Part shown: piece by piece, positions 7,680 through 61,828 of the stretch | Position numbering within the stretch: position 1 is the first letter of the stretch | Layout: every line of letters starts with the position of its first letter | Program-made: the position numbers and the translations under genes | Source: Cyanophora paradoxa CCMP329 | Taxonomy: Eukaryota > Plantae > Glaucophyta | Assembly (NCBI GenBank): GCA_004431415.1 | Contig: QPMI01000402.1 | Coordinates: 1-64,000, forward strand | Reading direction: 5' to 3' | DNA: 64,000 bases | The notes under the pieces: generated by a model | Database searches by the model: none | What the model was told of the DNA's origin: nothing | The model's input: the letters and a program-made list of their open reading frames with translations, nothing else

Positions 7680-8257
7680 CCAGATGGGAACGGGCGCCTC
7701 GGGCGCGGCCGCGGGCCCGCTGACATCGCCGAGGTCGCTGCGATCACCTTCTCGATCGCGCGCTCTCTTCAGCGAGCTCCCGCCATGCCCGCCGAGGCGA
7801 CGCCTGCAACGGGCGGCCGCCGCGGCGACCGTTAGCCGCAGACGACGTCCGAAAGGGTCGAAATGCTTACCGGAGACTTTGGACACGCCCGGCGGTGTCG
7901 GAATCGATCGGAAAGTGCAAGTTCCCGAAGCGGGCGCGACCACGCCCGCCGATAGAGGTACCCGAGAACCGAGCTTGTGTGCGGATTGCTGGCCAAGCAA
8001 ACTACCGCAGCTGCGTGTAAGCTATCGTCTCGACACGGTTTACGGGAATCCGAGTGGCCGGATCGGCGTTTACGGGGACCAAACGTACCCCCCCCCGTTT
8101 ACGCCGTCCCATTTTTTTTTTTACAGTCGCTCGTTCCCCCCGCCCACGCGCACCCGCCCCTAACCCGCAAGCTCCCCGCGTCCTCTTTCAACGCATAAAT
8201 CGGAGCGCGCAGGCCCTTGCTATCGAGGCGCGCGCAGGCCGCGGGCGCAGCGGCGCC

Positions 8258-11200
8258 ATGTCGCTCGCGTTTGCGCGCGACTCGTGGGAGGTGGTCTCGT
8301 TCGACGCCTACGCCGGGCCCGAGCGCCTCCACGTGTTCCGCACCGACGCCGGGCCCGCGGCCGCCCTGCCCCAGGTTCAGCGCATATTCGGCAACGGACC
8401 CGCCGAGGCGGCGGAAGAGGCGGCGAGGCAGCTCACCGGACCGCACGGCCTCGCGTCGAGGCCGATCGCCGGCCCGCAGACGGAGAGCCTCATCCTCCTC
8501 TGGGAGATGCTCGCGATCGTGCCGCGGGGCCAGCTGCACCCGACCGAGAGCCCGCCGCGCGTCCTCTCCCTCCAGCACGTCGAGGAGCTGGCGTCGATCT
8601 GCTGGGAGGGGTCGGACAGCCCGCGGCTGCGGCACTGCTACCGGGACCTCACCTCGGCGATCGAGCGGCGGACGCAGGAGACGTTCGAGCGGTGCGACGT
8701 CAAGGTGCTCCACGTAGACGGGGCGAGGTTCTTCGCTCTGAAGGTCCGCCGGCTCGAAGTTCCGGAGGTCTCGCCCTGGTACATCCCGCTCGCCAGCATC
8801 GCCCAGTGCATCTACGGCGGCCCAAAGGACACGGCCAGCGTGCGGCGTGAGATCGCGAGGAGCCACCCGAGCCTCGGAGAGAACAGCCCGCACCGCTGGC
8901 TCGCGACGACGAAGACGCTCGGGCGCCCCCACTTTGCCACCCTGGCGAGAACGCTGGTCAGCTTCCTCGCGCTCTCCGGCGAGGCGGGGCAGGAGAACCT
9001 GGGGTCGGCTCGCAAGTGGTCCTTCCTGAGCCTCGAGGGGGCGGAGCAGCTCCTGGCCAAGCTTCCGGGCCGGGATCCCGCGTTCGGCCTCGCGTTCAAG
9101 AGGGCCTCGCTCGCCATCCGAGGCCACGATCCTGCGGAGATCGATTTGATGGTGCCCGAGCCCCGCCCGGCGCGGCGCCTGGCGATCTTCTCCAAGAGGG
9201 AGTGGCTAACGGTACCCCCCCCCCCCCCCCCCCCCCCCCCTCCGGCGCCGCACTCACCCCGGGCGCGCGTAGGATACGATGCTCGCAAACGTGATGACCC
9301 TCCTGCTGCACCGCATGAAGCCCAACGCGAGCGCCAAGGCCCTGTACCCCGCCAGCCTCGACACCATCGTCTCGATCCTGCGGCGATACGCCAAGATGAG
9401 CGACGAGAGGCGCCGAAAGCGGGCGCTATGGCACGCGGCAAACGGCGGGCTCGTTCTGTGCTTTGGCTGCACCGGCGGGGGGCAGGGCGGCGCGCAGAGG
9501 ACGTGGACGACGCGCGGCCACTGGGTCACGCTCGCCCTCGACGGCGCGAGCCGGTATACGCGCCCGCCCCATCCCCCCGCCCCCTCCCACGACCGCGCGC
9601 ACCGCGTCCCCGCAGGCGGTGCAGGTACTTTGACTCGCTCGGCGCGCCGCCGGATCCGAGGTTGAGGCGGGCGGCGAGCAAGGCCTTGCCGTCGTTTACG
9701 TGGGTCACGGAGCTTCCCGATCGCCTGCAAACGGACGGTCACTCCTGCGGTAAGGCCGGCGCCCTCGCCCGCGCGCGCGCACGCGCCGCGAACCGCGCGC
9801 ACCAGGGATATGGGCGCTGTGGTTCGCCGAGAGCCTCGCGCTGGAGGCGGCGACGCAGTACTCGTGGGAAGAGTACCTGAACGACGGCTCCATCGGATTC
9901 CTAAAGTCTGGTGAGGCGTTTACGAGCGAGCTCGGCGCTAAAAACACGCGCTTCATCGCACGGAGGTGCCTCTATTCGGCCCTCCCCGCCCCCGCCCCGC
10001 CCCCACCACGCCGAACCCCGCCCCCCGCAGGCGAGAGGCGTACCGGTCCTTGCTGGAGAGCGCCATCGTCGACACCAGCGATCTCCGCCTGTTCGAGATC
10101 GACGAGGACGTCGACAGCTGGGCCGTCGCGCTCCCCGCATCGAGCCGCGCGCCGCCGGGGGCGGGCGCCATCGAGGCCGCGGGCCCGGCGGCGCCGGGGG
10201 ACCCCTCGTCCTCGTCCGCGAGCTCGTCGTCGTCCGAGAGCGAGGCCGAGGGCGACGAGGGCGGCAGCGACGGCGACGCGCGCCCGCTCACGCCATCGAC
10301 CGCGCCGCCTCGCCCGCCGTCGGCTCGCCGCCGGCGCCCGTCGCGCTCGCCGTCGCCCGGACCGGCTCGCCCCCGGCCGGCGAGGCGCGGCAGCCGTACG
10401 CCCTGCACGAGGGCGCGTTTAGTCGGGCCCTGAAACTGCAGCTCGCGGCCTATCGGGAGTGGAGACAGGCACCGTTGAACGCCTCGCGCAAGGGCAACGC
10501 CGTCGAAAACTCGAGCCTGGCGAACGACCTGGGCATCATTCAGCGGCTGCTGGGCTACGTCCGCATGCGCGAGGGGCTGGAGGGCGAGCTCACCCTCGAT
10601 CTGATGAGCCGGGTCGACGCGGTCGAAATCGTGCTTCGTTTCTTCAAGTGAGGCGGGGCGGCGGGCGCGGTGGAGGGGGGGGGTGCGGGGGGCGTTTACC
10701 AAACGCCGCGGCAGGTTCCTGCGCGAGGAGCGGGGCACGCTGCCCGGGACGCTCGTGAGCTACGCCTCCACCCTCATCAACCTCGCCGCCTTTGTCGCGG
10801 GACGGGGCGGCGCGCCGGCGGGGAGCGAGGGCCCGCACGGTCAGGCCCTGCGCAACCTGCGGGTGAGCTTCCCTCCCGCCCCGCGCCGCCGCCCCCCGGG
10901 GGCGCGCCGACGCGCCGCGCGCACCCTCAGAACCAGCTCGTCGCCGAGTCCAAGGCGGAACGGAAGTGGAGAACGAGAAAAACGTGGGTCCGCTTCGAGG
11001 ACGTCGTTCGCGGGCGCGTCGAGGCCTACGCCGCGTTTCGCTCCGAGGAGCGGCCGCGGCAAAAGGCGAAGTACCTGAGGGAATCTCTCTTGCTTGGGTT
11101 CCTTTCGATCAGCCCGGCGCGGCCGGGCCTCCTCCAGCACCTGAAGATCGGCGAGACGCTGCGCAAGGACAACGGTCGGTGGAACATGTCGATCCTGAGC

Positions 11201-12866
11201 ATGCGGATCCAGGACGGCTCCGAGGAGGGCGCGCTCACCCACAAGACGGCGGTGCGGGGGGCCTCCCGCCGCGCCGCGCCGGGACGCGCGCCGCCGACGC
11301 CCCCATCCGCAGAAGCGGCACGGCGCCGTGATCGTCCCGGTCGCCCAGCAGCTCCAGGTGCGCGCCCCGCCCCGCCCCGCGCGCGCTCCGTCGACCGCTG
11401 CCGCGCGGCGCGTCAGGAGCCGCTAACAGAGTACGTGGAGAGCTTCCGGCGTCACCTGTTGAGCGAGGGCGCCAAGGACCAGGGGTACATCTTCTTCACC
11501 TCCGGCGGCGATGCGTTTCGCCGCGGGTCCTGGACCCTGTTCGCGAAACAGGTGAGGCGAGGCGCGCCGCCGGCGCGGGGCGGGGCTCACCCGGCGCAGG
11601 CCATGAGCCGCTGGACGGGCGTCGCCGTGCCGCCGCGGACGATGCGCGCCGTCGTGACGACCTGGGTGCGCGATCAGGCGGCCCAGGGGCGGATCGAGGG
11701 CGACGTCTGCACCAGCATCATCGAGGGGACGGCGCGCCTCCTCCAGCACACCCCGCGGACGGCGACGATGCACTACGATTGCAATAAGACGCAGCGCGAG
11801 GTGCGCCGCCCCCGCCCCGCACCCCCGGCCCCGCGCGCTCACCGGGCAAGAGGCGTGCGTGGCGCTGGCCTGGCTCGAGCGCGCCGCCGGCGAACTCGAG
11901 AAGCCGACGGTTGCCGCGCTCGAGGGGCCGGAGGGGCGGTCTTCGTCGGACGGGGACGGGGAGGAGGGGGAAGGCGAGCCCGGCGCCGCCGCCGGCGCCG
12001 CCGCCGCCGCCGCCTCGGACGACGGGGAGGAGGGCGGGAGCTCGGAGAGCGAGGACGGCGGGAGCTCGGAGGAGCTGAAGGAGGGCCTGCGCGTCGAGCG
12101 CGAGCTCGCCCGCGCCGAGGGGCGCTGGTGTCCCGAGTGCCGACGCATCTTCGGGACCCCCAGAGGCATCTCCCGCCATCGTTGCTCGCCGCGCACGCCC
12201 AAGGCGCGCGGTCGGAGCGACGACGACGACGAGGAGGATGAGGAGGAAGAGGAGGAGGAGGATCCGACGCCCAAGGCCCCGCGCCGCGAGCGCGGCCGCG
12301 GCGGGCGGGACGTGGCGGTCCGGGACCCGCCGGCGGAAGACGAGGGCGAGGGGTTGGACGAGGCTCCGAAGCGGGGTCGCCCCCGCGCGGCCGCCGGCCG
12401 CCGGCGCCCGCGCGAGCGGGAGGAGATGGCGCCTCCGCCGGCCCCCTGGCACATACGCCTGATCACGCCGAGCCCCATGCCTGCGCGGAGCGTCGTGGCG
12501 GCGATGGTGACTCGGCGGGGCGACCTCTTACCCACGACGGTCTTTGCGAGGCTCACGGCGACGGTGGGGCTCGCCTCGGGCCAGCAGGAGAACCGCCTCG
12601 TCGTTCTGCGCAGGTTCGGCACGCTCTGGACGCCCTCGAACGAGGGCGGGCCGGACGATTACACCTACCCGCGCGCGGCGGTGCCCGTCGAGTACCGCGC
12701 GACGAACGGGGCGATCGACGTGACGACGTCTGCCGAGGAGGTCATGCAGCGGCTCGGCGCGGCCGCCCGCGAGGCCCCGCCGGCGGCGCACCCGCCGGGA
12801 GGGCGCGGGAGCGCCACCGGCCGCCGCCGCGGCCGCCCGCCCAAGAACCTGAGGCGAGGGGCGTGA
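8258..12866 (+). CDS. Spliced multidomain protein: Ulp1/C48-type cysteine protease + tyrosine recombinase + acidic tail with zinc finger and AT-hooks
   Basis: About 10 GT-AG introns restore frame (e.g. 9212-9272, 9554-9615, 9750-9805, 9966-10030). Protease: GHWVTLALD..RYFDSLG..LQTDGHSCGIWALWFA. Recombinase: SPARPG (R), THKTA (K), PRTMR (HxxR box with H replaced), LQHTPRT (H), MHYD (Y). One frameshift is needed near the C-run at ~10370. Confidence 0.8.
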
Positions 12867-18345: not shown

Positions 18346-20011
18346 ATGCAGCGACCCACCCAGACGGCCGCCATTCTAGCCGCCGAGGCCGCGGTGCGCG
18401 CCCGGATCATCCGCGAGAGCGACCCGACGAACAAGCTCGGCGAGCTTTCGGCCCGCCTGTTACTGGAGGCATCACAGCTGCCGATCCAGTACCGTAGCTG
18501 CGCCGCGCGGGGATGCTGGGCGTCCACGGGGTGCCGGACGCCGCTGTGCACGGACCACCTCGAACGAGCCTCGGTGCGGGCCGCGCGGCGAGCGGCCGGC
18601 ACCTCCCGCGCGGCTGATTGTTGCGTAGCTACGAGTCGGGCCCTCCAGGGCGGTCCCGGGCGCCCTGGGCCTGTTCGCGGTTGCTTCGCCGGCCGCGCGG
18701 GCGCGGGCCGCCCTCCTCGGCCCGGCGTACCGCGCCCTCGTCTTTCACCCAAAGCTCCGGAAGCGCATCTGCCCGTACGACGGGTGCGCCGCGCCGCCCT
18801 TGGACCCTCGCTTTCGCCGGACGACGTCGACGCGCGCGCGCAGGCGGAAGATCGTCTGCCCGACGCACCAGTGGGCCCAGCTCCAGAAGACCGGGCGGTG
18901 GACGTGCGCTTTCCCTCGCCGCCGGCGCCGGCGCCGCGCGCGCCGCTCACGGGCGGGGGCGGGCCCGTTTACGCAGGTTCGTGTTCCAGATCAACTCGAG
19001 CTGCCTCATCGACGCCTCCCTCCCGATCTTTACGGGCCGCTGGGCGAACAACGGCTATCCGTTTGCGCGGAACAACGCCACGATCGCCGGAGACGGCAAC
19101 ACGCAGACGGCCTGGCTGCACGCCACAAAGTGCATCTACGACGACGACGAGGTGCGCCCCGCGCGCCCAACCCCCCCCCCCCGCGGCGCGCCGCCGCCGC
19201 CGACGAACGCGCCCGCCCGCGCGCAGATCCTCGTCTCATACGGTACGTGCCGCGCCCGCCCGTCTCCCCCGGCGCGACCCCGCGGCCGACCCCGCCCGTC
19301 GTGCAGGCGACGGCTTCTTCGATAAGCTGCTGGGCCAGCTCAAGGCGGGCGTCTTCGCCGAGTGCGACTGGCCCGGGCAGGTGCGCCTGTCGGAGCGGGA
19401 CGAGCGGATGTCGAAGCGCCCCCGGGGCGAGCTGGACGGCCTGGCGGTGCTCGGGTGCGCCGCGGGCGCCTGGACCCCAGGACCGCTGGTGGGAGCGCGC
19501 GGAGGCGGCGGCGGCCGCCCTCAAGTTCGTGGCGCGGGTGGTCGGCATCCTGGAGGACGAGGACGACGGCTGCGGCGGCGGCTCGGCCGAGCCGGCGATC
19601 CTCTGGCCGCGCTGCCCGTTTGCGGCGCGCTTCGGATCGTGCGGCGCGCCGGCGGCGGCGCCCGCCCCGCCCCGCGCACCCCGAGCCCCGCGGCGGGGAG
19701 CGGCGCGACCCCGTCCGGGTGCCGTCGACGACGCCGGCGCCGGCGCGGCCCGCGGCGGCCTTCTGGCCGCCCTGCCCCTTTGCAGCGCTCTGCGGGGCGG
19801 GCGGCGCGCGCGCGGGGCGGGGGCGCCCGCTCCCGCCCGCCCCGTCGGGGCGGGTCCGGAGGAGGCTTCTCCGGCGCCGGCGCCGGCGGCGCGATCCCCG
19901 GCGGCCCTCTGGCCGTCCTGCCCTTTGCCGCGCGCCTCGGGCGGCCGCGGGCGGGGCGTTTACGCGTGCGAGGACGCCGCTCTGCCAGGGGCAAAGCGGG
20001 CGCGCTCGTAA
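18346..20011 (+). CDS. Spliced SET-domain methyltransferase with Cys/His pre-SET segment
   Basis: After removing introns (18574-18628, 18784-18843 and at least three more): CAARGC..PLCTDHL, LRVGPSRAVPGALGLFA, ICPYDG, FVFQINSSCLIDAS, GRWANN, LHATKCIYDDDEILVSYGDGFF. This is canonical SET motif order. The 3' end is uncertain. Confidence 0.8.
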
Positions 20012-20835
20012 AGGGCGCCGCGGGCGGGCCCGGCCGCGGCCCGGCGGCGGGGCGGGCCGGGGCAACCGACTCGCCAAGTCGGCGAGCCCGAGGGTCCCGA
20101 GGAGGTTGGGGGTTAAACGTTGGGCTCGCTGTGCATGGCGCGGGTTTTGGGGCTTGGTGTGAGCACTGTGCCACGGTGAGCCAGTGTGAGGTCGCCGGCT
20201 TTAATTTCGATTGCATTGAAAAATATATTTAGTTAATCTGATATCGATGGTACCGCCAGCGCTAGCTATAGCCGCCGGGCAGCAGTACTAGTAGCTCATG
20301 ATCATGACTCAGTGATCAGCAGTCGATGATCATGATCATGAGCTTAGCTGCAGCTATCATAGTATAGCCTATTGGGCGGCGTATCATATAATTATAAATG
20401 AGGATCGGAGCTGGAGTCAATTTAGGACCTACTGATCATCATGGCATGAATCCCGGGCCCGGATGATCCGCATGATCACTGAGTCAGTACGTATACAGCT
20501 AGATATCGATCTAGATCTCCTGCAGCTGTACATGTATACGTATACGTATACGTATCGCGTACGCGTACGTAGTTTGGTGCTTAACGTACCCCGGCTGGGA
20601 CCGCATTAATATCGAAACGCTAAGAAACTGCGGTATGTATCCCTTAGAGCAGCCAAAAGGCTTCAAACCGCATTAATTCGGTACCGCATTAATATCCATG
20701 TAGGGGTCCGGGTCCAAAAACGCATTGATTACTGGCGCATTAATTAAGTACTAGCGTTATACGGTAGTTGACGTCGACGCCACCGGGCCAACTCGTGATC
20801 GACCGTCTCCGAGGCTCGACCGTCACGGCCGCCGG

Positions 20836-22016: not shown

Positions 22017-22279
22017 CTGTAAACGTAGAAAAGTTCGTTGAGACTTAATTTCGACAAAACCCGAAAATCGTAACGAAAATACGGTTCGACAGCAGCATAT
22101 TTTCGTCAGCCCCCCGACTCCGCCATAGACGGGTCAGCCGCTAGTACCCTACTCGATACAAAATTTCCGTTCAAGAGTATCAAATATTCGTCAAAGTGCA
22201 GGTCTGACGAATATAGACGAACTTCGGAAATAAAGACGCTGTCGAAGATTCCTACTAGGCTACCGTAGTACGTTTACAG
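22017..22279. mobile_element. Tc1/mariner/pogo-type MITE
   Basis: TA|CTGTAAACGTA ... TACGTTTACAG|TA: an 11-bp TIR flanked by TA. The interior is non-coding with TTCG(T/A)-type subrepeats. Confidence 0.6.
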
Positions 22280-43956: not shown

Positions 43957-44129
43957 CGTTTGCAAAGGTGAGCGAGAGCGATGGCGAGGCCCCTCGGAAG
44001 GGGGTCTTAAATGGCCTGGGCCACAGGCCCTCGCGCGACCCAGGAGGAGGGGATACAGCGACTCTCGAGTCGGCGGCGGCGCGGGGCGGACCCACCGCCC
44101 CGAGTCACTCCTCTTCCGCCCCCTACCCC

Positions 44130-49475: not shown

Positions 49476-49525
49476 TTCGCGCGGCAAGGCGATACGTTGT
49501 CGTGTGTGGCGAGGGCTTTACTGGT

Positions 49526-50020
49526 TCAGAAGATCTTAAACTTGCGTTTCGCATTGGACACGTTGAACACACGGGTCCGATAGTGTGTGTCGAGCTTCAG
49601 CCCACCCGAGACGCATTCCGACTTTCGTTTAGGTCTCTGTTGCTGCTCGGTGGTGAGCACGTTCTCCACAGACCTCCACACGCTCGTTATGACATCCGCG
49701 GGCGCGTCAGAGGCCAGCCGTCCGATGGAGACCAAAAGGCGATCGGCGTGAAGGTAATCGGCCAGAATAGCAAGCCGTGCCAGGTTCAAAAGCGTCTCTG
49801 TAGGGTCCGGACACGGAGGTTCAAATAGGCGCGTGTCGCTCGGGGCGCTGAGAGCCCTCTCGGCGGAGCGGACGAGCCACCCCGAAAAAGGGAGCGGCAT
49901 CGGGGCGCTTTCGGCGTCGCAGCACTCGGCGGCCTCGCGGAGAACGATCGAGTCGGCGAACAGGGCCGGAGGACACGGGAATGGGGCGTCGTCTCCCATG
50001 CACATGAGCTTCATGCTCAT
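49526..50020 (-). CDS. Skp1/BTB-POZ-like protein
   Basis: MKLMCMGDDAPFPC..DSIVLREAAECC..PMPLP and LAILADYLHADRLL, matching the Skp1 pattern S..I....PLP ... LI.AANYL.I..LL. Confidence 0.6.
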   Translation of the reverse strand: MSMKLMCMGDDAPFPCPPALFADSIVLREAAECCDAESAPMPLPFSGWLVRSAERALSAPSDTRLFEPPCPDPTETLLNLARLAILADYLHADRLLVSIGRLASDAPADVITSVWRSVENVLTTEQQQRPKRKSECVSGGLKLDTHYRTRVFNVSNAKRKFKIF

Positions 50021-50140
50021 CCTCGCACTCGTACGTTAGAGGAAACTTTGCGCTCGCAGGATGTATTTCTGGATCTCATATTCGCGAGTGCGAATCCTTA
50101 TTTTACTCGAAAACAACGAGAAGTCGGTATTCAAGTCCGT

Positions 50141-50827
50141 TTACGTCCGACCTAGGCCTAGACTACGCATTACTTTTACCACCCCCATCGGAGAGACGCC
50201 GGCCGCGCGCGCGACGTCGGTTGCGGTGGCGCCGGCTCCGTGCGCAACGGCGGCGGCGGCTACCAGAATGGGCGAGCGCGCGGACTCGGAGAGCGCTCTC
50301 GCAACGTTTACGGCCCTGTGGCGCGAATCTGCGTCCAGCGCGAGCCGAGACAAAATAATCTCCACATAGTCCGACGGCCTCGCGACGTACGTCGGCCAGC
50401 AACGACGGCTACGCTGGATGGCGCGCACGCAACGGAAAACGGCGCCGCGTCGGGTGACGAGGTCGGGCGTCCACGTCAACGCATCGGCGAGGAGACGGGG
50501 CGAACGAAGCGCCTTCGAAGCCCAGTACAACCCCGCCGTCGCGAGCACCAGCGCCGAACGACCGTTACGGATGCTCCGCGGCGCGATCACGCTCCGCGCA
50601 ACATCGACGATTCCTTCGGGAACATACAGAGCGATGGCGGCAGAGCGCAGCGCCTCCTCCACGCGGCCGCCACGGACATCGGCCTTGCTTCCATCGTCAC
50701 CGCGATCTTTGCGATCTTCATGGGGTGCGCCCAACACGCGTGGAGTTCGTACGACGCCGCAGCCATCGCAAGCGCACCACTCCACGGTCAGAACCGTCAG
50801 CCCGCCCCCGCACATTGTCCAGATCAC
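50141..50827 (-). CDS. TFIIB-like transcription initiation factor
   Basis: Zn-ribbon half CDGCGVV. Cyclin repeat 1: LYVPEGIVDVA..GRSALVLATAGLYWA..PRLL. Repeat 2: PSDYVEIILSRL..RSPILVAAA..DVARAAGVS. Start uncertain (50827 or 50815). Confidence 0.85.
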   Translation of the reverse strand: MIWTMCGGGLTVLTVEWCACDGCGVVRTPRVLGAPHEDRKDRGDDGSKADVRGGRVEEALRSAAIALYVPEGIVDVARSVIAPRSIRNGRSALVLATAGLYWASKALRSPRLLADALTWTPDLVTRRGAVFRCVRAIQRSRRCWPTYVARPSDYVEIILSRLALDADSRHRAVNVARALSESARSPILVAAAAVAHGAGATATDVARAAGVSPMGVVKVMRSLGLGRT

Positions 50828-51049
50828 CCGAACAACGTCAACGCGAAAGGCTATCTCGAGGCAGAACGCAACTCTCTCTCTCTCTCTCGTAAGGAATCGC
50901 CGAACACGGGACCTCCGGGTGCATTTCTAGGTCCGCCCGCATATATATCAAACATTTTGCACGTGCGTACAGATGCGAAGACCGACTACAAACGTTTCAC
51001 GCGCGCCTCGAAAAGCGGAGGGAGGATGTCGGGATTGCCGTAAACGCGG

Positions 51050-51436
51050 ATGCGGCGTCGTACCTGCGGATGGTGCCCACCCCCCGCCGCCAAGGATCAA
51101 TTCGTGGGGCACATCCAACGGGCCATCCGCCGCAACGTCAACCCCGCGTACGGGCGTGGGGAGAGCGTTTCGCTCAAGTACCGCGACTGGCTCGAATGGT
51201 CCGGTTCGGACCTCTTCAAGAGCAAGTCGTCGCGTCTGCGTGCGTTCTGCACCGCCACGACGGCGCTCGGTCAGGCGGTCGTCTACGGGGACCTCTGGCA
51301 CCTGCAATTTTGCGTCCAGGGGCTTCGGGAGATCCTCGAGCGCGGGTTCCCCTGCGAGGATGACTCGAAGAAGGACTACATTACGTGGGGCATGTACGAG
51401 ACGAAGATTCCCGTGGTAGGGTGTCACGTTCTGTGA
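51050..51436 (+). CDS. Hypothetical protein (true start may be 50973 via frameshift or intron)
   Basis: Protein-like composition. The TATATAT at ~50942 is shared with the divergent TFIIB-like gene. Confidence 0.5.
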   Translation: MRRRTCGWCPPPAAKDQFVGHIQRAIRRNVNPAYGRGESVSLKYRDWLEWSGSDLFKSKSSRLRAFCTATTALGQAVVYGDLWHLQFCVQGLREILERGFPCEDDSKKDYITWGMYETKIPVVGCHVL

Positions 51437-51761
51437 CGGGCCGATTGCGGGCAGCGGTAGATTGCCGTGTACATGAGTAAATAGAATCGACATCGAAGCA
51501 CGCGCTACGTAAACCCACGCGCGGCGTGCGCGCAACTACCAACACGATCGCTCATCCCGGGGCGTAAACGGAGCGCAGGGCGCCCTTCGTACGCCCCGCC
51601 GTCGACCTCGCGCTCGTCTTTGGCCGTGAGACGAGGGTACACGAGGGTACGATGGCCTCTTCGTGTGCAGATGGGGCGGCCGCGGCCGTTTCAATTCATC
51701 GAGGATCGCCTGGGCCCCGAGCACGGATAAATATCAGCGCCCGTCTCGGGTGTCGGCACCC

Positions 51762-52127
51762 ATGGAGAGCTGCGAGCTGATCTCCCTCAAGGCGTACCCG
51801 ACCTCGGCCTTTCCGACGGCCAAAGAGGGCGGCGTGCGCGTCGGCACGTTCCACGCCGTCAAGAGCCGGCTCGACGTCGGCATGACCCCGCACGCGCTGC
51901 GCGCGATCTCCGGACTCCGCGAGGACGCCGTCGCCGCGCTCCGCCGCCACGACCGCAAGGGCTACGCGCTCCTGACGGCCTACGTCGAGGACGAGGGCGG
52001 CGTCGCCGTCACGCACGTCATCCTCGCCCGCGACGCGAGGGACGTGCCGCCCCCCAAGCCCCGTGCGGGTGGGGGAAAACGCGGCGGCACCAAGGGCGAC
52101 GACGGCGAGGGAAATTCCGATTCGTGA
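51762..52127 (+). CDS. Small hypothetical protein
   Basis: CACCATGG start, GATAAATA ~35 bp upstream, strong GC3 bias. Confidence 0.6.
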   Translation: MESCELISLKAYPTSAFPTAKEGGVRVGTFHAVKSRLDVGMTPHALRAISGLREDAVAALRRHDRKGYALLTAYVEDEGGVAVTHVILARDARDVPPPKPRAGGGKRGGTKGDDGEGNSDS

Positions 52128-52138
52128 CACGCAACAGA

Positions 52139-52683
52139 CTACGCGTCGTCGGCCGTCTCGTCCGTATCCACCTCGATCGTCGTAAACGCCTTGGCCAACC
52201 GCTTCATGACGGCCAGCTTCCGCCGCGCGCCGCCCCCGCCGCCCTTTACCTCGCGCTCAAACGCGCGCGACTCGGCGACGCCGGCAAAGCCGTAGGCGAT
52301 CGCCAGCGCCTTCCACGGGCCTTTTCCCCTCGTATAAGCGAATTTCGAGCCGTAATTGTGCTCCCGGAGCCTGCAAACGGCGCGCGCGTGAGCCGGCCGT
52401 CGGCGCGCGTGCGCGCTCGCGTCTACCTCCTGGCCATGTCGGAGGTGCTCCCCACGTAGCAAATATTCTGGTCGTTTGTAATCAAGTACACGACGGGCTG
52501 CTTGGGGTGGCGCAGGTGGAGGGCCTTGGTCTTGGTCGCGGCGGGGGTCTTGGGGGGCTTTGCGGCGTCGCCGGTGCCGTTGGCGCCACCCGCGTCGTCC
52601 TGCGGCGCCGCGCCGTCGCCGGGTCCCTCCCGCTCTTCTTTGATGGCGGCGCCGTCCTTGTCGCTTTCGAGAGACTCTCCCAT
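52139..52683 (-). CDS. SLX1-like GIY-YIG endonuclease, one intron (52371-52426)
   Basis: Spliced product VYLITNDQNICYVGSTSDMARRLREHNYGSKFAYTRGKGPW..GF..ESRAFE. The 56-nt GT-AG intron removes the stop and restores RRLREHN. Confidence 0.9.
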
Positions 52684-52770
52684 TGATCCGGCGACGGCTC
52701 GAATGTTCAAGGGGGCCCCGAGCCCGTATTTACGCGTGGGCGCGCGCCGAGGGAGGGCCCCCCCCCCCCC

Positions 52771-52807
52771 CCCCCGGGGGCCCCGTGTGCGCTCGAGACC
52801 TATAAAT
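52771..52807 (+). promoter_or_regulatory. CCCCCGGGGG + TATAAAT promoter module (divergent GIY-YIG/primase promoter)
   Basis: Motif at 52771, TATAAAT at 52801, ATG at 52865. Confidence 0.6.
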
Positions 52808-52864
52808 GGGGGCGGCCCTCGGGCCGTTGCACCGTGACCGCGACCTCGGAGCAACGCGCGCGCC

Positions 52865-55156
52865 ATGGCGCCGTCGACAGAGTGGAAGGTGGAGTACCGC
52901 CCGCAAAACGGCTCCGCGTACGATGTCGTCAACGACAAGAAGTGGTACTCGGGGTCCAACAAAGTCGCATCCGTTGGCGTCGAGCCCATCAACACCCTCC
53001 TTCGCAAGAGCTCCCTGTTTTTACCCGAGTTTTGGCGCGAGGCGGACCCCTCCGTTCGCTACCACCACATGGGGATCATCGACATCGACGGGATCAGGTC
53101 GGATCCAAAAGGCGCAAAGCCGATGTGGACTCCGGATCGCGAGGAGCTCGATCGTCGCATCGCCGGCGGAGGCCTCGACGGCGCGGACCTCGGCGCGCTC
53201 TGCGAGGAGAATTCGTCGCTCTGGGCGGCTCGCAAGGCGGCGGACCTGATCTCCGCGCGGCTCACGGAGCGCGGCAAGCAGGCCCTTCTCCCCTACTACA
53301 CCGGTAAAAAGGGATTCCGCGTGCTGTTCCGCGACGTCGACCCGGCGACGGGCGTGGACCGCGCGTACGTGCGCGTCCGTAAGAACGAAAAGTGGGGGAC
53401 GCACGAAAACGTAAAAACGTACTTTGAAGATCTTCTCGGGAGCGACCTGCTTTCGATGGAGCTGGAGCGTGGTGGCATCAAGACGACCGTCGGTTTTCTC
53501 ATCGATTACGGCGTTCACGCGACAGGCAAGGGTTGCAAGCCGGACGTGCAGCACCACGCCGTCACAAAGGTGTGGCCGACGCGCGGGCCCACGCTTTCGA
53601 CGAACAGGACCCGCGATCCCGATCCGGCGCTGCGCCGCGAAATATTCCGTCACTTTGATGCCATCTGCACGACGAAGAACCTTTCCGCAGCATCGACGGC
53701 GCGTCTTTACGAGCTGCGGGGCGAGACGACCGAGCCGACCGATTCCGATCGCAATCCAAAGGAGACGTGCGGCGAAGGACCCGACATCGATGTCGAAACG
53801 AAAAGGCAACTCGGGGGAAAGCACATCGTTCATGCGTGGCGTTGCATCCTGCTGGACTCGAAGTATCCACCGGCCGGGTTTCGCGTGGGCACGACCGCAA
53901 GCGACGCGATCAGGGCGACGCACAGGGAATGGTTCTTTAAGTATACGCAAAACTTTGCCCTGCACAACAACCCATTTGGATGGATGCCGGGATCAAAGCT
54001 CAACTCCGAAGAGAAGCGACAACTGAACGAATGGATTCTCAAGAGACAGCTCGAGGCGCTCCGGTTGGGGCTCGAGTTCTGTACCCACGAGTTTACGGAT
54101 CCCGAAGACTGCAACCGATTAAAACTGGATTTTGACAAGCTCCTGATCGACGACCACGCGACGCTACGCTCTCTGCAATCCATTCTCGTGGAGGAGCTCG
54201 GGATTCCCCGTGAACATTGCCGCGTGATCTCCCTCGGAAACCCAAAACGCAGGTCGACGCACGTCGCGTTTCCGGATATAAAGCTGCCCGTGGAGATGTT
54301 CCCGTCAATTGTGCAGCGGATAGCGAGCGCCAAGGGAATGCCCTGGAGCGGATCCCTTGCCGGCAAGCTCGACACGCAACCCCTGTCGTCGCCCTCCATT
54401 CCGCTTCGCATGCTGGGGTCGGTGAAGCGCATCGCTATCGTGTACGAAGACAGCAACGGTACCTCCGCCAACTGGTTAAGGATCGTCGAAGACAGTCGCA
54501 TGCGGTTGCTCGCGGCCGTCGACGCGTTCGGTCAGCCCGACGAGAAACGGTACGCTACAAGCGATGGCACGTTTGAGGCCCTCACGCAACGCCTCCTGTA
54601 CGACGCGTGCGTGCGGGCCCTCCCGGGCTGGACGGCCACACCGCTTTCCGAGGAGACGCGCGAGCTAATTCGCTGCTGCAAACAAAGGGCACGCGGTAAA
54701 TCCAACAAGGTACCGGCGAGCGACGCGGAGTGCGTGGTACTCAAGGAGCTCTTTGAAAAGTACCTCCTCCTCGACGAGGTCGCGGACGCCGTGTTTGAGC
54801 AGTGCGGCGAGACCGACCCGGTCGAAGTTTTCAAGTCCCCCGTGTTTAAATCATCTGGTGACGGATGGTACACTGCCTCCAACGACAAACTCTGGGCGGT
54901 GTGCATTCCCACGGCCGGAAGGATGGTGAAAGGCAAGCCCGCCCACCCCGCCGACAAGGCTCACATCGGAACGGTTTACTTTACCCTCTGCCCCGAGCAG
55001 CGATGCGTCATCGCCGGGTGCCTCCGCGAGACGTGTTGCGCGTTTTACATGCGTGTAGGCGACACGGATTCCAAGTTCCCTCGCACCCGAGTCGGGACCT
55101 TTGGTACCCAAACGGCCCCCGACGCCCCCCCCGCAAAGCGCGCAAAGACCAGGTAG
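52865..55156 (+). CDS. Archaeo-eukaryotic primase with two AEP-like domains and C-terminal UL52/PrimPol-like zinc finger
   Basis: Domain 1: IIDID, YYTGKKGFRV, IDYGV. Domain 2: LKLDFD, RRSTHVAFP, LDTQP..LRMLGSVK. C-terminal C..H..C....C (AVCIP, AHIG, GCLRETC). Confidence 0.8.
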   Translation: MAPSTEWKVEYRPQNGSAYDVVNDKKWYSGSNKVASVGVEPINTLLRKSSLFLPEFWREADPSVRYHHMGIIDIDGIRSDPKGAKPMWTPDREELDRRIAGGGLDGADLGALCEENSSLWAARKAADLISARLTERGKQALLPYYTGKKGFRVLFRDVDPATGVDRAYVRVRKNEKWGTHENVKTYFEDLLGSDLLSMELERGGIKTTVGFLIDYGVHATGKGCKPDVQHHAVTKVWPTRGPTLSTNRTRDPDPALRREIFRHFDAICTTKNLSAASTARLYELRGETTEPTDSDRNPKETCGEGPDIDVETKRQLGGKHIVHAWRCILLDSKYPPAGFRVGTTASDAIRATHREWFFKYTQNFALHNNPFGWMPGSKLNSEEKRQLNEWILKRQLEALRLGLEFCTHEFTDPEDCNRLKLDFDKLLIDDHATLRSLQSILVEELGIPREHCRVISLGNPKRRSTHVAFPDIKLPVEMFPSIVQRIASAKGMPWSGSLAGKLDTQPLSSPSIPLRMLGSVKRIAIVYEDSNGTSANWLRIVEDSRMRLLAAVDAFGQPDEKRYATSDGTFEALTQRLLYDACVRALPGWTATPLSEETRELIRCCKQRARGKSNKVPASDAECVVLKELFEKYLLLDEVADAVFEQCGETDPVEVFKSPVFKSSGDGWYTASNDKLWAVCIPTAGRMVKGKPAHPADKAHIGTVYFTLCPEQRCVIAGCLRETCCAFYMRVGDTDSKFPRTRVGTFGTQTAPDAPPAKRAKTR

Positions 55157-55208
55157 ATAGAGGCGCCTGTGTTTGTGATAACGCGACATTTTACGTATGC
55201 AATCGGCT

Positions 55209-55964
55209 TCAGCGTTGCGGGCCCCCAATCGTGGCGGAAACGAATCGCAAGGCCGCGCGCCCCAGCATCCACCGCGGATCGGCGTAGAGGTCCGTAAACG
55301 GGGCGGGGAGGCACTTTGGGAGCCACGCGGATGCCTCGGCGAGGCGCGCGGCGTACTCTCCCGGCTCCTCGGCGAGCCGCGCGAGGTGCTCGTCCTCGAG
55401 GAGTCGCACCGTGGTGGGCGGGACGCGGCACGAGGGACACGCGAGGGCCCTCGGCTGGGCGACGAGCTGGAGGGCGCACGCGAGGCAGAGGACGTGCTTG
55501 CACGGGGTAAACTCGACGGGGCGCGCGGGTCGCTCGAGGCACACGGCGCACAGCCGGTCCGGCTCCGGCCTGGACGTTGATGCCAGGTTCCACGTGCACG
55601 TCGAGAGGAGCGCGAGCGCGCGGCCGAGGCTGAAAAATTTCGCAAGGGCGGCGCGGTCGCGCGCGGGGTCGGCCTCCATGGGCAGCTCGGCGACGGCCAT
55701 GTCGCGCCGGCAGTCAAAAGGTTGGTGGCAGAGGGGCACGCGCACGACGGCGGCGCGGCGATCGGCGTCGTAGTAGAGCGTGCGATCGCCGCGGGCGGAT
55801 TCCAGGGCCGCCGCGCCCGGCGGCGGTTCGGCGCTAGAGGCCGAGCGCCACGCGGGAAGGGTGAAGAGGCCGCCGTCCCTGACGGCGGGCGCGAGCCCGG
55901 GGAGGTCCTGCAGGACGCACGTCCGCTTGGTGCACGGCTCGACGGCGCTTGGCTCGGCCTGCAT
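55209..55964 (-). CDS. C3HC4 RING-finger protein (putative E3 ligase)
   Basis: CAVC..PCKHVLCLAC..CPSCR. TATAAAAGG lies ~55 bp upstream. Confidence 0.9.
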   Translation of the reverse strand: MQAEPSAVEPCTKRTCVLQDLPGLAPAVRDGGLFTLPAWRSASSAEPPPGAAALESARGDRTLYYDADRRAAVVRVPLCHQPFDCRRDMAVAELPMEADPARDRAALAKFFSLGRALALLSTCTWNLASTSRPEPDRLCAVCLERPARPVEFTPCKHVLCLACALQLVAQPRALACPSCRVPPTTVRLLEDEHLARLAEEPGEYAARLAEASAWLPKCLPAPFTDLYADPRWMLGRAALRFVSATIGGPQR

Positions 55965-55991
55965 GGATCCAGGACGCCGTTTTGTTGCTGT

Positions 55992-56249
55992 TTACATGCC
56001 GTTCTCGCGCTGCCTCCTTTTATACCTTTTACGGACCTCGCGCATCACCTCGTTGTTGCACCTACGGCACCGCTTTCCGACCCGTCCGCTCGAGTGCGCG
56101 CGGAGCTCGTCGAGGTTCAGTAAAAGCCGACACCGGCAGCAGTGTCGCAAGAGGATGCCGTCGCCTTTGTCGACGACGCAGCGACCTCGCGTCACCGAGC
56201 CCTTGGGTACGACGAATGCAAGGTCCATCGAGGGCGCGCGCGCACCCAT
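55992..56249 (-). CDS. Small C4 zinc-finger protein with basic tail
   Basis: CCRC-x18-CRRC followed by REVRKRYKRRQR. TATATAG lies just upstream. Confidence 0.55.
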   Translation of the reverse strand: MGARAPSMDLAFVVPKGSVTRGRCVVDKGDGILLRHCCRCRLLLNLDELRAHSSGRVGKRCRRCNNEVMREVRKRYKRRQRENGM

Positions 56250-56286
56250 GCGCGGCCCGCGGGACCTATATATGGGTTGCACCCTC

Positions 56287-56329
56287 GGGGCCCCCAGGGG
56301 CGCGCGACGGGGCAACGGCTCCATAAAAG
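56287..56329 (+). promoter_or_regulatory. GGGGCCCCCAGGGG + CATAAAAG promoter module (bidirectional)
   Basis: Motif at 56287-56300, CATAAAAG at 56322, ATG at 56397. An opposite-strand TATA lies at ~56266-56274. Confidence 0.6.
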
Positions 56330-56396
56330 CAACCGGCCCCTGGGGCCCATGGTCGAGTGCGAGCCTCCCCCGGACCACCCCCGTCGCGCCGGCACC

Positions 56397-59300
56397 ATGA
56401 CGGGCAAGCGGTCCTCTCCGCCCATCCCCTCGCCCTCGGACGACGAGGGAGACGACGCTGCAAAGCGCGGGAGGATCGTAAACGACGAAAGCGGTGGCAA
56501 GATCGAGGACGCAATCGACTCTATGGACGTCGACCCCATCCCGCCGCCGCCCCGCCCCGAAGACGCCGTCGAGGTCATCTTCGACGGCGCGTGGCACCCC
56601 TGGACGGCGCTCGAATCGTCGTCCGAGTTTGAGCGGCGCGGCATGGCGTCCACCTTTGCGGTTCGCTCCAACGGCCGCCTCCGCCTCGTGCGCTACGGAG
56701 GCGTGGAGACCTTTGTCGCCGAGGGCGTGCGCCACGCGCGCCGCCGCGAGCTCGTCGTCCGGCTGCGCTCCGAGCGGTACCGCCGCTGCTCGCTCGCGGC
56801 GCTGCTGCGCGCGTTCCCGGACCTCCGTCGGGCCGCGCGCGCCGCGTTTCGCCGCTGCCAGAAGCTGGAGCGCTGGGGGGTCCCGTTTACGCTCGAGTAC
56901 GACGGCGCGCTCGGGTTCCGCATCTTTTACAAGTCCATCACGCGCTTTCGCGAGCCGCCCCTCGGGCGGCGCTTTGCCTCTTTGGAGGGGCAGACCACGG
57001 CGACGCTCCCCTCGTACCTTCGGGTCCTCCCGAGCAGCGTCCCCGCCCCCGCGTCCGTCGAGACGTACCTCGGCGCCGCCGCCGCCTCGGTCCAGCTCCC
57101 CGCCACGCGCATCGACGACTACCGCGCGCTGGGCTCGGACGAGCGCGCGGAGCGCGTGCTCGTCCGCACGGGCGAGCCGGACGACGGCTCGTGCGAGGCG
57201 CGCGCCGACCTCGCCGAGTGGCTCCTCCCAGAGGTCGTTCGGTACGCGGGCGGCCTCGGGGTGCCGCCCGCCGCGCCGGCCGGGAGGACGATCGAGCTCG
57301 ACGACGCGGAGCGCGCGCGCTTTGCCGTGGCTCTCGGCCTCGTCGCCGGCCCCGCCTGCGCCGAGCTGGCGGCGGCGCCGGGGCGCGTTTACGTGGACCC
57401 CGCGAGCGTGCGGGTGGAGGCCTGGGTCAACTCGATCGAGTACCGGGCGCGTTTACCGTGCCCCGCGTGCGGGCGGGGGGACCGCTGGGCCGAGCTGACG
57501 GCCGACTCGGTGCGGGAGCGCGTCGGCGTGCGCTGCTGCGGCGAGTGCGAGCCCGCCATCGCGCGCAAGCGGCGGCGAGCCAACCGCAGCCGCTACCCGA
57601 AGCGGCCGCTCCACTCGGCGCTCAAGGCGCTCCGGCAGTGCGAGGTCGCCGCCGACGAGGCGCGCTTCGGAAACCTCGGTCGGGACGCCGTCGAGCGGCG
57701 GGAGCACTACATGGACGCCGCGCGGTTCGGTGCGACGGCGAATCGCGCGTTCGAGGGGTGCGGCACGGCCTCTGCCGAGCACGTCGCGGAGATCGAGCGG
57801 GTGGCCGAGGCGACGGCGAGGCTTTTCGGCGGCGAGGGTACCTTTTGGACGCTCGAGGGCATCGCCGAAAAGTGGGCCACGCTGAATGAAGAGGAGCGCC
57901 GCAAGGAGCGGGGCGCGCTGCGGACGGGCTTTCAGCTCCCGGAGCCCGGCAAGATGGACGATTGGATGAGGGTCTGTTGTCCCAGAGGGGGAGATCGACG
58001 ACGCGATGGACGAGATCATCGTGGATCCCGACGTGACAAACGTTTACGTCGACGACAGGCTCATCCACGACGCCATTGCGCGCGCCTTTGCGGAAGGATA
58101 CGAGCGCGTTTACGTCGTGCTGGAGGAGGGCATGGGCGCCGGAAAGTCGACGGCCATCCTCAGGTCGGCCGCAGAGGTGGTCCGGGACCCAACGATCGCG
58201 AACCTCGCCGAGGACACGACCGTTTCGATCGCCTGGTTCGTCAACTCCCGCTCCCATCCCGACCAGCTCAAGGAGAGGAACGACTTTCGGGCGGTGTTTC
58301 GCGGACTCGTGGACAAAGAGGGGAGGGAGGTGCAGCGGTGCTGGATCGGGTACAGGGAGGAGCGAAAGGCGGGCTCCGATGCGCCGGACGCCCTGCTCGT
58401 GACGGCCGAGTCGTCCCATCGGTTCGTCCAGGGCGCCTCGCCGTACCACATCCTCGTCATCGACGAGGTCGGCAAGATCGCCGCCATCATCAGCTCGTCG
58501 GGCACCCTCGCCAAGGATTTACGCCAGGCGGCCGCGGCAAAGGCTCTCGCGCGGATGCTGGCCGCGGCGCGCGTCGTTTATCTCGCAGACGCCGACCTGG
58601 ACCGCGAGACGCTCCGATTTGTCCTCGACATGGGCAATTCGGAGCCACGACCCGACGTAAACGCCTCCGAGGGGGAGACGGCGGCGGGGACTCGGACGAC
58701 GAGGGGGTGGCGCTCGCGGGGAGGACCGGCGCGGCGCGGACAAAGCGCATCCTGTATCGTAAATCCCACGGGGCGGGGGCGACATGCGCCACGCGTGGGC
58801 CGCGCTCCCGCTCTCTGAAGCCGGGCTGCGCGTCGCCGCGCTGCTCCTCCTCGGCTACAAGGTGATCGTCTCCTCGACCACCAAAGACGAGTTCAACGCG
58901 ATCTGCGCCGTTGTCGACAGCCACCCGGACCTCGCGCACGTCCGCAGGGCCCTCGTCTGCGGCAACTCGGACGATCGCGATCGCAGGCTCTTTTCCGACC
59001 CGAACCGGTTCGCCGAGCTGGACTTAATATGTTACAACACCGCGGTCGCTCAAGGGAGCTCCATGGACGAACCCCACGTGCTCTTTGACGTCTGCTGCGT
59101 GGTGCACGGAGGCGTCCTCGGGGACGTCAACATCCAGTACCAGCTCACGCCTCGCTGCCGGGCCTTTTCCGAGACCCTCGCGCTCATCTTCTGCCCCCTC
59201 GGGACACAGCCCAAAGAGAACGCCAAGGGCGCGCTCGAGCTCCTCGAAACGCGGCGGGCCGAGGTCCGGAGTCACCGGCGACGCGAGCGGCGCGACAGGG

Positions 59301-61768
59301 GCGCGGGCGTTCGCAGGGAGCACGACAACGGCGCCTTTGCCGTGGCGACGGCGCAGTGGTTGAACCCCACGCAGGAAAACGCCCTCCTCCGTCGTCAGGC
59401 CCACCAGATGGCCAACGAATCGCACACGCGCCGCAGCTTCATCTCGTCCTTTAACGCCAAGCTCCTCTCGCGCGGCAGCCTCGGCGTGGTCGTCGTTGAT
59501 TTCAGCGCTCCCGCCGGCGAAAATGTAAAGGAGGAGATCCAGGCGCTACGCGAGCTCTTCCGCCTGCACGTCATCGCCCACCCGGTCCTCGGCGCGCGCG
59601 CCCTCCCCGGCGAGGACGTCTCACAGGAGAAATCGGCGGCGGGCCGGCTGTTTACGGCTCGCAGGGCCCACCGCGGCGATCCAAACGACTACGAGCGTCG
59701 CTCGCTCGATCTCGCCTTTGCCGCGCAGGCCTTTTGCGTTGCGCCGGAGGAGCTCGGCGCCCGCGATATCGTCTGGTACCTCCAGGATCCCAACGGCAAG
59801 AAGAATCGACCCGAGCTCAGGAACCTCCTCCACGCGCTCGAGGTGGAGATGGGCGGCCGCCCCCGGCGCGCTCGGTCGACGTACGTTCTCCAGCCCACGT
59901 TTACGGACGAGGCGCACGCGGACCGCAGCTTTCGGGAACTGCTGGAGATGGTGCGGTGCCCGGCGTTGCTCGCGCTCCGGCACGTCGTGGATTCGAGCCG
60001 CGCGGGCGCGGCGCCCGTCGCCGACGCCGCGGTGGCGGCGCCCCTCTTGCGAATCGCCCTCTCCGAGGCGCCCCACGACCCGCCGGGGTTGGCGACCTCG
60101 GCGGTGCGCGTGGGGCTGGACGTCCTGGGGCGCGACCTCTTTGACGATGCGACCAAGGCCACGCTGGAGGCGACGATCTCGGTGGAGGCGGGGCTCCTCG
60201 AGCGCAACTTTTCCGACCTGCCGGCCGAACGACAGGCGTGCATCAAGAGGGCGGTCGGGGTCGGGGATGCGGATGACGCTCTGCCCGTCGCCGCCGTCGG
60301 CCGGGCGCTCGCAAAGCCATCCGTGCGGGACGAGGCGCGGGCCCTGTTTTACGGGAGCGTTGCCGGGCAGGCGCCCGTCGAGGTGGCGCGCGGCGAGCTC
60401 GAGGAGCTCTCGACCATGCTGGCGGCCCGGCGCGCCCTCGAGGACGAGGTCGCCGTCGAGGTCTTTCGAACGTTGGACGTCGTTACGGGGCGGCTCGCCC
60501 CCGGGGAGCGCATCACGGCCGAGACGGTGCTGCGCATCGGGCGCGACGGCGAGCCGGCGGCCGTGGAGGAGCTGCGCAAGGTGACGGCCAGGCTGCTCGT
60601 GGCGCCGCACCGGGACGCTCGCTCGCTGGAGCGCGGCGCGGCGTGGAGGGAGCGCCTCGCTCGGCTGACGGACCTCGGGCCCTTGAACGTGCTCGACCCG
60701 GCCGGCGCGGACGACCACGCCATCCGCACCGAGATCGAGCGCCTGCGCGTGCTGGGAGTGGGCGCGGACGAGTTTGGTCGGCCCCTGGCGTGCCCTTTGG
60801 TCGAGTCGGATGCGAAAGGCGTCCTCCTGAACCTCTACGCCAAGGCCATCGAGCACGTCGGCCTCCCCTTTCGTGCAAAGGATACCTTTGGTGCCATCGC
60901 ACGGGCAACCCGCTTCTGTTCCGACAGTTTACGTCCCCTCTCCGGCACGTTTCCGACCCTGGCGGCCCGACTGGGCCAGCTCAACCTGGCGTTTACGGTC
61001 CTGGCGGCGGCCGCGACGGTGCTGGGACGTGCAAAGAAGAGGGCGGCGGATATCAAAGCGGCCAAGCAGCGCGCGCACGATCAGAAGATACCCTACCGAG
61101 AGCCCCCCGAGCCCGAGTATCCCGCGGAGAACCCGTTCCTTTGGCTCTCGGCCGAGGCGCGCGCGTCGCTGACCCCAGAGGACGGTGTCCTGTGCGATTA
61201 CGACGTCAGGGACGTTGTACATCGCGCGCTCTCGTCGCCAGAGGCGAGCCCGGTGCTGGATTGGGACGTAAACGGCACGACGGTGCGCGGGGCGGTCGTA
61301 AACGCGCTGCAATGTGCCGAGACGGCCCTCCAGGAGGCCACGAACCTGCGAATCGCGGCCACCGAGGACGACGTGCGCGCCCTCTGCGAGCAGGTGGTTC
61401 GGTGGAGGGCCGAGCACGGCCACAGCCGCGTCCTCGCCGAGCCGTATCCGGAGAGGCGCGGCCGCGGCGACCACATCCTCGTCTGCAGGTCGCTCTTCGA
61501 GACGTACACGTGCATGGGACGCGAGCCGACGGTGACTTCCTCCGGGGAACGGATCGGGTGGTTCCTGAACACGTCCTCCGAGAGCGGAATCGCCGCGGTG
61601 ACCAAGTGGCAGGAGGAGACGTGGAAGACGCCGCCCCAGAGCGCCGGGGTGTTCCCGCCAAAGGCGAATCGCTACCGCGAGATCGAGCGGGCCGGCCGGC
61701 GGCGCACGCGTTACCTTTGCATACCGCGGCAGTGCTTTGTAAACGTAGGCGTTGCGCTCAATTTTTAA
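56397..61768 (+). CDS. UL9-like origin-binding SF2 helicase (~1790 aa) split by three frameshifts
   Basis: EGMGAGKST (I), VTAESSHR, YHILVIDE (II), VYLADADL (III), VIVSST (IV), LICYNTAVAQGSSMD (V), YQLTPRCR (VI), in herpes UL9/NCLDV ori-binding order. Frame changes at G runs at ~57970, ~58688 and ~58778. Confidence 0.85.
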
Positions 61769-61828
61769 TACCAATCACATTTCTAATCCGTAAACGGTCT
61801 CGACCTGGGAATGGGGGGCGCGGAGGGC

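Follow-up and report, generated by a model that had tools for sequence, protein, structure and literature searches.

Why does one short word with an AT-rich core recur through most of a 64-kb stretch of DNA from the alga Cyanophora paradoxa CCMP329, within and between genes alike? The stretch analysed here (the window, 64,000 nucleotides of contig QPMI01000402.1) is, from 5.2 to 64 kb, a single endogenous large-DNA-virus-like element with a GC content of ~0.68. In an original prediction the octamer CGTTTACG, CGTAAACG on the minus strand, had been described as strongly over-represented in coding and non-coding DNA. We found that the over-representation is genuine and goes beyond composition or codon use, and that the word is, in addition, polar by DNA strand. 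The following features of the window are needed first:

5230 to 64000, running off the right window end: GC-rich element, endogenous large-DNA-virus-like by its sequence; CpG observed/expected 1.2-1.4
8037 to 63336, both strands: dispersed word (C)GTTTAC(G)/(C)GTAAAC(G), from word counts
8067, 8096, 9693, 9917, 18966, 19957, 22007, 25447, 28670 and 29682, plus strand: octamer CGTTTACG
36349, 37027, 39231, 41469, 42482, 42716, 43177, 44169 and nine array copies at 44709-49001, plus strand: octamer CGTTTACG
50138, 50305, 56884, 57386, 58041, 58107, 59898 and 60990, plus strand: octamer CGTTTACG
18294, 32216, 39187, 41511, 51039, 51563, 52181, 55293, 56477, 58656, 61267, 61297 and 61789, minus strand: octamer CGTAAACG
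8037 to 8125, plus strand: densest cluster, with three copies of GTTTAC(G) spaced by 30 and 29 bases and one TTTAC, upstream of an integrase-like gene
44128 to 49497: array of ~10 palindromic units of 537 bases, origin-like; DNA fold z = -17.7

Enrichment of the word

Exact octamers number 48 in the window, 35 of CGTTTACG and 13 of CGTAAACG. Of the 37 dispersed copies located by the original prediction, 34 lie exactly where it placed them and three are off by -1, +10 and +20; the copy at 22007 had been missed, and the ten copies in the array, one per 537-bp unit, are present as described. For comparison with expectation we used a non-redundant set of 49.5 kb, in which tandem arrays are collapsed and the low-GC first 5.2 kb as well as a palindrome block at 20.2-23.4 kb are excluded. 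This set contains 38 octamers, with those at 43177 and 44169 lying within one duplicated context. Markov models of order 0, 1 and 2 predict 0.8, 1.4 and 3.0 copies, and 100 shuffles each yielded on average 1.2 (maximum 5) when dinucleotides and 2.9 (maximum 9) when trinucleotides were preserved, so that the claimed excess amounts to 38 against 1.2-3 expected. When synonymous codons were shuffled in 18 coding stretches (21.75 kb), 2.3 sense and 0.45 antisense copies were expected and 10 and 6 are seen; none of 300 shuffles matched either observed count. The enrichment thus survives the dinucleotide, trinucleotide and synonymous-codon nulls, a check that had been set beforehand. With provisional gene models the word is similarly enriched in coding (41 vs 1.9 expected) and non-coding DNA (19 vs 1.1), and when the element is cut into thirds, GTAAAC ranks as the top hexamer in all three.

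Among 51 control viral loci, which are not GC-matched, the element word is top-ranked in none. No comparable excess was found in 16 loci from family B DNA polymerase (PolB) neighbourhoods (33-57% GC, not GC-matched), and GTAAAC is among the top two hexamers in none of 35 viral loci chosen for the octamer pair. CGTTTAC counts in control loci reach 12 vs 1.9 expected in L051 and 7 vs 2-3 in L021 and L044, which share overlapping sequence; L027 and L028 are repeats. The 65%-GC viral locus L041:1-16055 carries CTCGAG 54 times (6.6 expected).

A graded, non-palindromic word

The informative unit is not the octamer but a graded word of 5-7 bases, TTTAC < GTTTAC < CGTTTAC. The signal is nested, with the pentamer found 146 times (22-40 expected), the hexamer 79 times (7-12) and the heptamer 62 times (3-6), and the per-site odds ratios rise from ~8 through ~11 to ~20. 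The base before TTTAC is G in 79 of 146 copies, and C precedes GTTTAC in 62 of 79 (p 1e-8). The octamer as originally proposed does not hold as the unit, since its last G, which follows GTTTAC in 47 of 79 copies compared with a background of 50% following AC (p 0.11), adds nothing beyond CpG richness. Densities per kb are about 3 for the pentamer, 1.6 for the hexamer, 1.25 for the heptamer and 0.77 for the octamer; CGTTTAC therefore occurs ~1 per 800 bases, within and between genes, and TTTAC accounts for 18% of the TA dinucleotides of the element. A diverged 430-base duplication at 26061-26920 has TTTAC in one copy and TTTCC in the other.

Words of the form TTTRY are 1.6-6.6-fold enriched. 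Degenerate GTNNAC or GTWWAC patterns are targets of the methylase type, and a methylation target had been among the earlier suggestions. Of the GTNNAC words, GTTTAC alone shows strong enrichment (79 vs 12), GTATAC and GTTAAC being at or below expectation and the others at most mildly enriched, which leaves a methylase-type GTNNAC/GTWWAC family unsupported; no DNA methyltransferase was found among 35 + 22 sequences scanned with Pfam, some exons lying outside the scan. The idea of a selected or mechanistically generated signature stands in so far as the word is dispersed and no by-product of composition or codon use, while the proposed likeness to a HIP1 palindrome does not: CGTTTACG itself is non-palindromic, and the palindromes CGTTAACG and CGTATACG have 0 occurrences.

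Synonymous routes in coding DNA

Within genes the word forces rare AT-ending codons, as had been foreseen, and each of the three routes is used above background. Val is encoded by GTT ahead of Tyr in 8 of 11 cases (51/530 elsewhere) and by GTA ahead of Asn in 9 of 18 (23/523 elsewhere), and Phe by TTT ahead of Thr in 20 of 24 (109/224 elsewhere). The heptamer, read as CGTTTAC or GTAAACG, is used at 28 of 65 places that the protein permits (4.2 expected), and the route that needs two rare codons is taken 6 times (0.2 expected). Different synonymous routes converge on the word: T is chosen in 12 of 14 cases at [Y]TTAC, and the choice goes toward the word in 19 of 33 at T[Y]TAC, 33 of 39 at TT[Y]AC and 12 of 16 at G[Y]AAA, compared with 5-47% in matched contexts. 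At two PolB tyrosines common to the sister polymerase P0002 and human Pol delta the word is spelled via the preceding codon. As the word is formed at four free positions and also at these shared tyrosines, no single-base hot spot explains it.

The dipeptide Phe-Thr is doubled in the element (24 vs 12.1 expected, p 0.002), and at one site in the tyrosine-recombinase (YR) gene and one in PolB, FT in the window stands against FA or FS in the sisters; FT counts in sister-element proteins (11 vs 7.2 in 5,047 residues) are uninformative. A separate, general bias favours T at TT[Y], with 52% in sense and 48% in antisense orientation vs ~13% elsewhere. Across 5230-64000 Phe is encoded by TTT in 52% of cases, whereas the other two-fold codons are 77-92% C-ending, and the depleted words are TTCGCG/CGCGAA, CTTA and TTAG.

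Strand polarity and spacing

A property not contained in the original prediction is the polarity of the word. Outside the arrays GTTTAC is found 51 times on the plus and 26 times on the minus strand (p 0.006). Our polarity model includes codon opportunity, sense and gene strand, and is based on 28 provisional genes (14 per strand) with exon pieces added, 3 of 38 of which were dropped for want of a clear frame. The plus-strand odds ratios it yielded are 2.8 (TTTAC), 6.4 (GTTTAC) and 3.5 (CGTTTAC); permutation of the gene labels gave p values of 0.004 for TTTAC and 0.015 for GTTTAC, and the sense effect was ~1.1, i.e. none. The polarity tracks the DNA strand, not gene direction. No polarity was seen for the control words TTTGC and CTTTG or for the general TT[C>T] bias (91/237 vs 90/233). 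Around the array, a candidate origin, the raw octamer ratio of plus to minus is 16:4 on the left and 8:9 on the right (p 0.047).

Of the periodic spacing considered earlier, no short-range form appeared. Periodicities of 10-11 and 146-200 bases gave no convincing signal in the element window, and gaps of <=70 bases are in no clear excess (11 vs 7.5 expected).

The element and its genes

The genes that bear on the word, and the flank, are:

8258 to 12866, plus strand: intron-rich gene with an N-terminal region of unknown nature and parts resembling a tyrosine recombinase and, possibly, a Ulp1 protease
34259 to 37873, minus strand: family B DNA polymerase (PolB), predicted to be without proofreading; Pfam E 1e-50
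39472 to 41397, plus strand: GHKL (MORC-like) ATPase; HATPase_c_3 E 8e-6
52865 to 55156, plus strand: putative archaeo-eukaryotic primase-like protein, from DxD and SxH-like motifs seen by eye
56397 to 61768, plus strand: UL9-like superfamily-2 helicase gene; Atlas score 0.98 to a cluster with ResIII (48%) and Herpes_ori_bp (31%)
1 to 5229, plus strand: low-GC, CpG-depleted, high-copy flanking repeat that carries a decayed primase-helicase; no other part of the window lies outside the element

The stretch at 52.8-61.8 kb is contained in 20 public runs, all of one organism. Relatives of a left-end and a right-end gene are found on one sister contig, and the intron-rich left block is therefore part of the element and no host control. 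A protein identical to the helicase has a EukProt id from the series to which relatives labelled Cyanophora paradoxa also belong. A viral PolB and replication genes lie within a eukaryotic genome, as in a giant endogenous viral element (GEVE) of the Nucleocytoviricota or Mirusviricota; capsid or packaging genes were not recognised in the window, beyond which the element extends. Viral contigs searched with proteins of the element or its relatives yielded no relatives, metagenome scans gave 2 remote PolB loci and otherwise none, and phage records and an Rfam search gave no match.

Aligned with human Pol delta, the PolB of the window has Ala for the ExoI Asp, and His for Tyr and Asn for Asp in ExoIII. 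The sister P0002 retains the ExoI/ExoIII residues. With two exonuclease carboxylates gone, the enzyme appears to have lost proofreading, as predicted from the alignment. The putative primase has three relatives. For the integrase-like gene (8258-12866) relatives were seen on two sister contigs only; one of them, P0008, matches Phage_int_SAM_1 (E 0.009) and a PHROG integrase (E 0.005) weakly, and the Ulp protease match is weak as well (E 0.07). Structure models were too poor (pLDDT 36 for the putative primase, 42 for the N-terminus of the integrase-like gene) and fold searches remained empty. In the helicase region, short-read contigs from 3 runs have, compared with the window, four inserted single bases and no frame breaks, so the four breaks in the helicase frame look like assembly errors. 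Other element genes encode a RING protein and proteins with weak GIY-YIG and TFIIB matches; we also noted SET-like exons (by eye) at 18975-19245 and a TFIIB-like gene at 50144-50827. Among the element proteins examined no DNA-binding domain was identified.

Pieces of the genes at 13.9-20.5 kb are covered by RNA contigs of two studies, with gaps consistent with splicing. For 52.8-61.8 kb no RNA match is listed and one RNA run gave short spurious pieces, which is not evidence of silence. TATA-like boxes stand ~50-80 bases before the starts in the intron-poor replication block (49600-64000).

Each 537-base unit consists of near-perfect palindrome arms of ~100 bases around an AT-rich core, with its single octamer in the GC-rich spacer outside the arms. 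From this architecture the array may be the origin of the element. A gene at 43441-43956 sits between partial copies of the unit, and further tandem arrays have units of 62 bases (32282-32934) and 129 bases (33307-34132). The block at 20200-23400 is made up of short palindromes (GTATAC, TTAAGCTTAA, GACTC/GAGTC, GATCATGATC) and is rich in CpG and TpA. By contig depth, which we did not take as copy number, parts of this block appear multi-copy, and depths in the thousands at 4.5-5.2 kb suggest a high-copy mobile family.

What maintains the word?

The word is stabilised as one unit, and its orientation depends on the DNA strand and not on transcription, which points to a process travelling along DNA. 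We tentatively favour weak selection on a polar site that the replication machinery of the element itself uses for primase start or helicase loading. The likeliest reader would be the putative primase or the UL9-like helicase, starting or loading on the word, and weak selection would keep it, every additional site bringing a small gain. Archaeo-eukaryotic primases start synthesis with purines, and the T-rich template core would suit such an enzyme. We counted for a link to replication that the element encodes PolB and the UL9-like helicase and carries an origin-like array, and that an unrelated phage locus, L051:1-16044 (67% GC), with an NrS-1-type primase-polymerase and PolA, has a comparable word, GTATTAC (16 vs 0.4 expected). 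With slightly less confidence we would extend this to a nuclear algal large DNA virus whose whole genome carries a polar replication word of the Chi or primase-site type, strong enough to alter codons and some amino acids, with its own primase or UL9-like helicase as the reader.

A number of observations weigh against a replication site. The strand bias is modest (66%), the polarity test was picked after data inspection, and the polarity of CGTTTAC is non-significant by permutation (p 0.13). No significant flip of polarity was found at the 537-bp array (interaction p 0.1-0.9), the sign being the same on both sides. Per-strand spacing is random or clumped (CV, the coefficient of variation, 1.15-1.5 for the 5-7-base words vs 0.9-1.1 in the null), and gaps on a single strand run to 5-10 kb. 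An obligatory priming map would not look like this, and neither does GTATTAC in L051, which is evenly spaced with strands pooled (CV 0.48, p 0.002). The putative primase at 52865-55156 has no Pfam, PHROG, PDB or fold match. When PolB is compared with its sisters, motif codons are identical in 8 of 22 cases vs 509/1085, so that the sites are mostly unconserved at the protein level. Finally, TT[YR]C totals are nearly balanced (386 vs 361 expected), as a conversion process would give.

Such a process, the main rival, would be a non-adaptive mutation/repair ratchet, in which a proofreading-deficient PolB or word-directed repair turns TTCGC into TTTGC and then into TTTAC, both strands undergoing C-to-T changes and replication asymmetry adding the strand bias. 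The lost carboxylates of PolB, present in the sister, would fit this, as would the generality of TT[C>T] in both orientations, the halving of TTCGC (104 vs 221), the balance of TT[YR]C totals in three of four upstream contexts, and the doubling of Phe-Thr with FT in place of FA or FS. A ratchet model has already been proposed for HIP1, according to the accessible part of PMC4390886. It nevertheless requires separate hot spots at four word positions and, on top of these, the upstream preferences for G (79/146) and C (62/79); the word is polar but the general bias toward TTT is not, an excess of ~39 in the GTT context stays unbalanced, and recent repeat copies hold variants without drift toward the word (small sample). 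We infer that selection is the better account and regard a ratchet as somewhat unlikely. Were it a ratchet driven by a proofreading-dead polymerase, the element would be a natural record of the error spectrum of that enzyme.

The element could also have adopted a host-wide trait, for example a GUAAA-like poly(A) or termination signal or another host signal, which we consider unlikely. In the 100 bases that follow the stop codon, 21 gene ends together have 11 copies of GTAAA, often as GTAAAT, which is 5.2 per kb compared with ~1.5 per kb per strand, and UAAA and GUAA are poly(A) words in a red alga (PMC6413133, in the part available). The flanking repeat has GTTTAC 5 times (1.4 expected), all on the plus strand; it contains 0 CGTTTAC and no pentamer excess (11 vs 10.1). 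Against a host signal, sense GTAAA is enriched in coding DNA (19 vs 3.1), where a cleavage signal should be avoided, and the polarity goes by DNA strand rather than transcript. A poly(A) signal as such was rejected for want of sense specificity, antisense copies after stops being nearly as frequent (7 vs 11). A host-wide word would be a modest fact about the host.

Least probable of all is a site for a viral or host transcription or chromatin factor that coats the element and may sense flanking CpG methylation and control silencing or reactivation. The three-copy cluster upstream of the integrase-like gene, the intergenic octamer pairs 39187/39231 and 41469/41511, the MORC-like, SET-like and TFIIB-like proteins of the element, and its lack of CpG decay, although the host methylates viral genes (PMC12344493, in the part available), would suit such a factor. 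The forkhead core is RYAAAY and the full site RYAAAYA. The word core fits the former, and TTTRY words are enriched as given above; the forkhead site was rejected on its final A, where 62 of the 79 copies have G and 5 have A. Promoters show no strong concentration (the 4.3 kb before starts contain 21 pentamers, vs ~3 per kb overall), no DNA-binding domain was identified, and a factor on duplex DNA leaves the strand polarity unexplained.

Comparison with known systems

The word is a statistically strong new genome signature, of a kind already known from Chi, the Architecture IMparting Sequences (AIMS), phage primase words and HIP1. Bacteria and phages are known to have DNA words that are dispersed and under selection, while the motifs known from giant viruses are, to our knowledge, promoter words. 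An upstream promoter motif is what the available text reports for the punuivirus of Chlamydomonas, a GEVE (bioRxiv 10.64898/2026.10.09.758095), which resembles the element in having an intron-rich part with RNA contig cover and an intron-poor replication part that lacks it. For Cyanophora paradoxa, GEVEs have been reported in general terms in the accessible part of PMC12344493, whose readable supplement does not list the window or the sister contigs. A genome-wide coding word is described for neither in the accessible parts of these sources, the available portion of PMC12695648 has nothing on the element word, and our literature search, with subscription papers and unreadable supplements outside it, found no description of the word in a eukaryotic virus. 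If true, a polar word in an algal endogenous virus would give insight into how the element copies itself, put a template at hand for determining what its primase or UL9-like helicase recognises, and make it possible to trace related elements in algal genomes by their sequence tag.

HIP1 (GCGATCGC) is a palindromic GC-rich octamer of cyanobacteria, as described in the accessible parts of PMC5861425 and PMC4390886. It has a cognate DNA methyltransferase and is spaced periodically at 10-90 kb, a scale larger than the 64-kb window can resolve. Like HIP1, the element octamer is in 13- to 27-fold excess within and between genes and forces rare codons, and the question of selection versus ratchet arises for both. 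Unlike HIP1, the element word is non-palindromic with an AT-rich core and is strand-biased; over short distances it shows no periodicity, and no methyltransferase was found among the Pfam-scanned sequences of the window.

Phage primase start words are known for T7 gp4 and the NrS-1 primase-polymerase. The element word shares with them its presence on both strands and in every reading frame, the primase gene being putative from its motifs; unlike phage start arrays it is not evenly spaced, and its host is a eukaryote.

KOPS belongs among the polar words of bacteria. Chi and AIMS, in the accessible part of PMC5861425, are over-represented, strand-biased, non-palindromic short words inside genes. 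Polar words of this type change direction at origin and terminus and are read by a translocating enzyme. The element word differs from Chi and AIMS in belonging to a eukaryotic virus-like element, in its density (1 heptamer per 0.8 kb) and graded length of 5-7 bases, and in a weaker polarity (66%), with no significant switch found at the 537-bp array and a cognate enzyme that is putative. Like them, it is non-palindromic and over-represented, with a strand bias independent of gene direction, and if it does serve replication it would be a eukaryotic-virus counterpart of the bacterial chromosome-architecture words.

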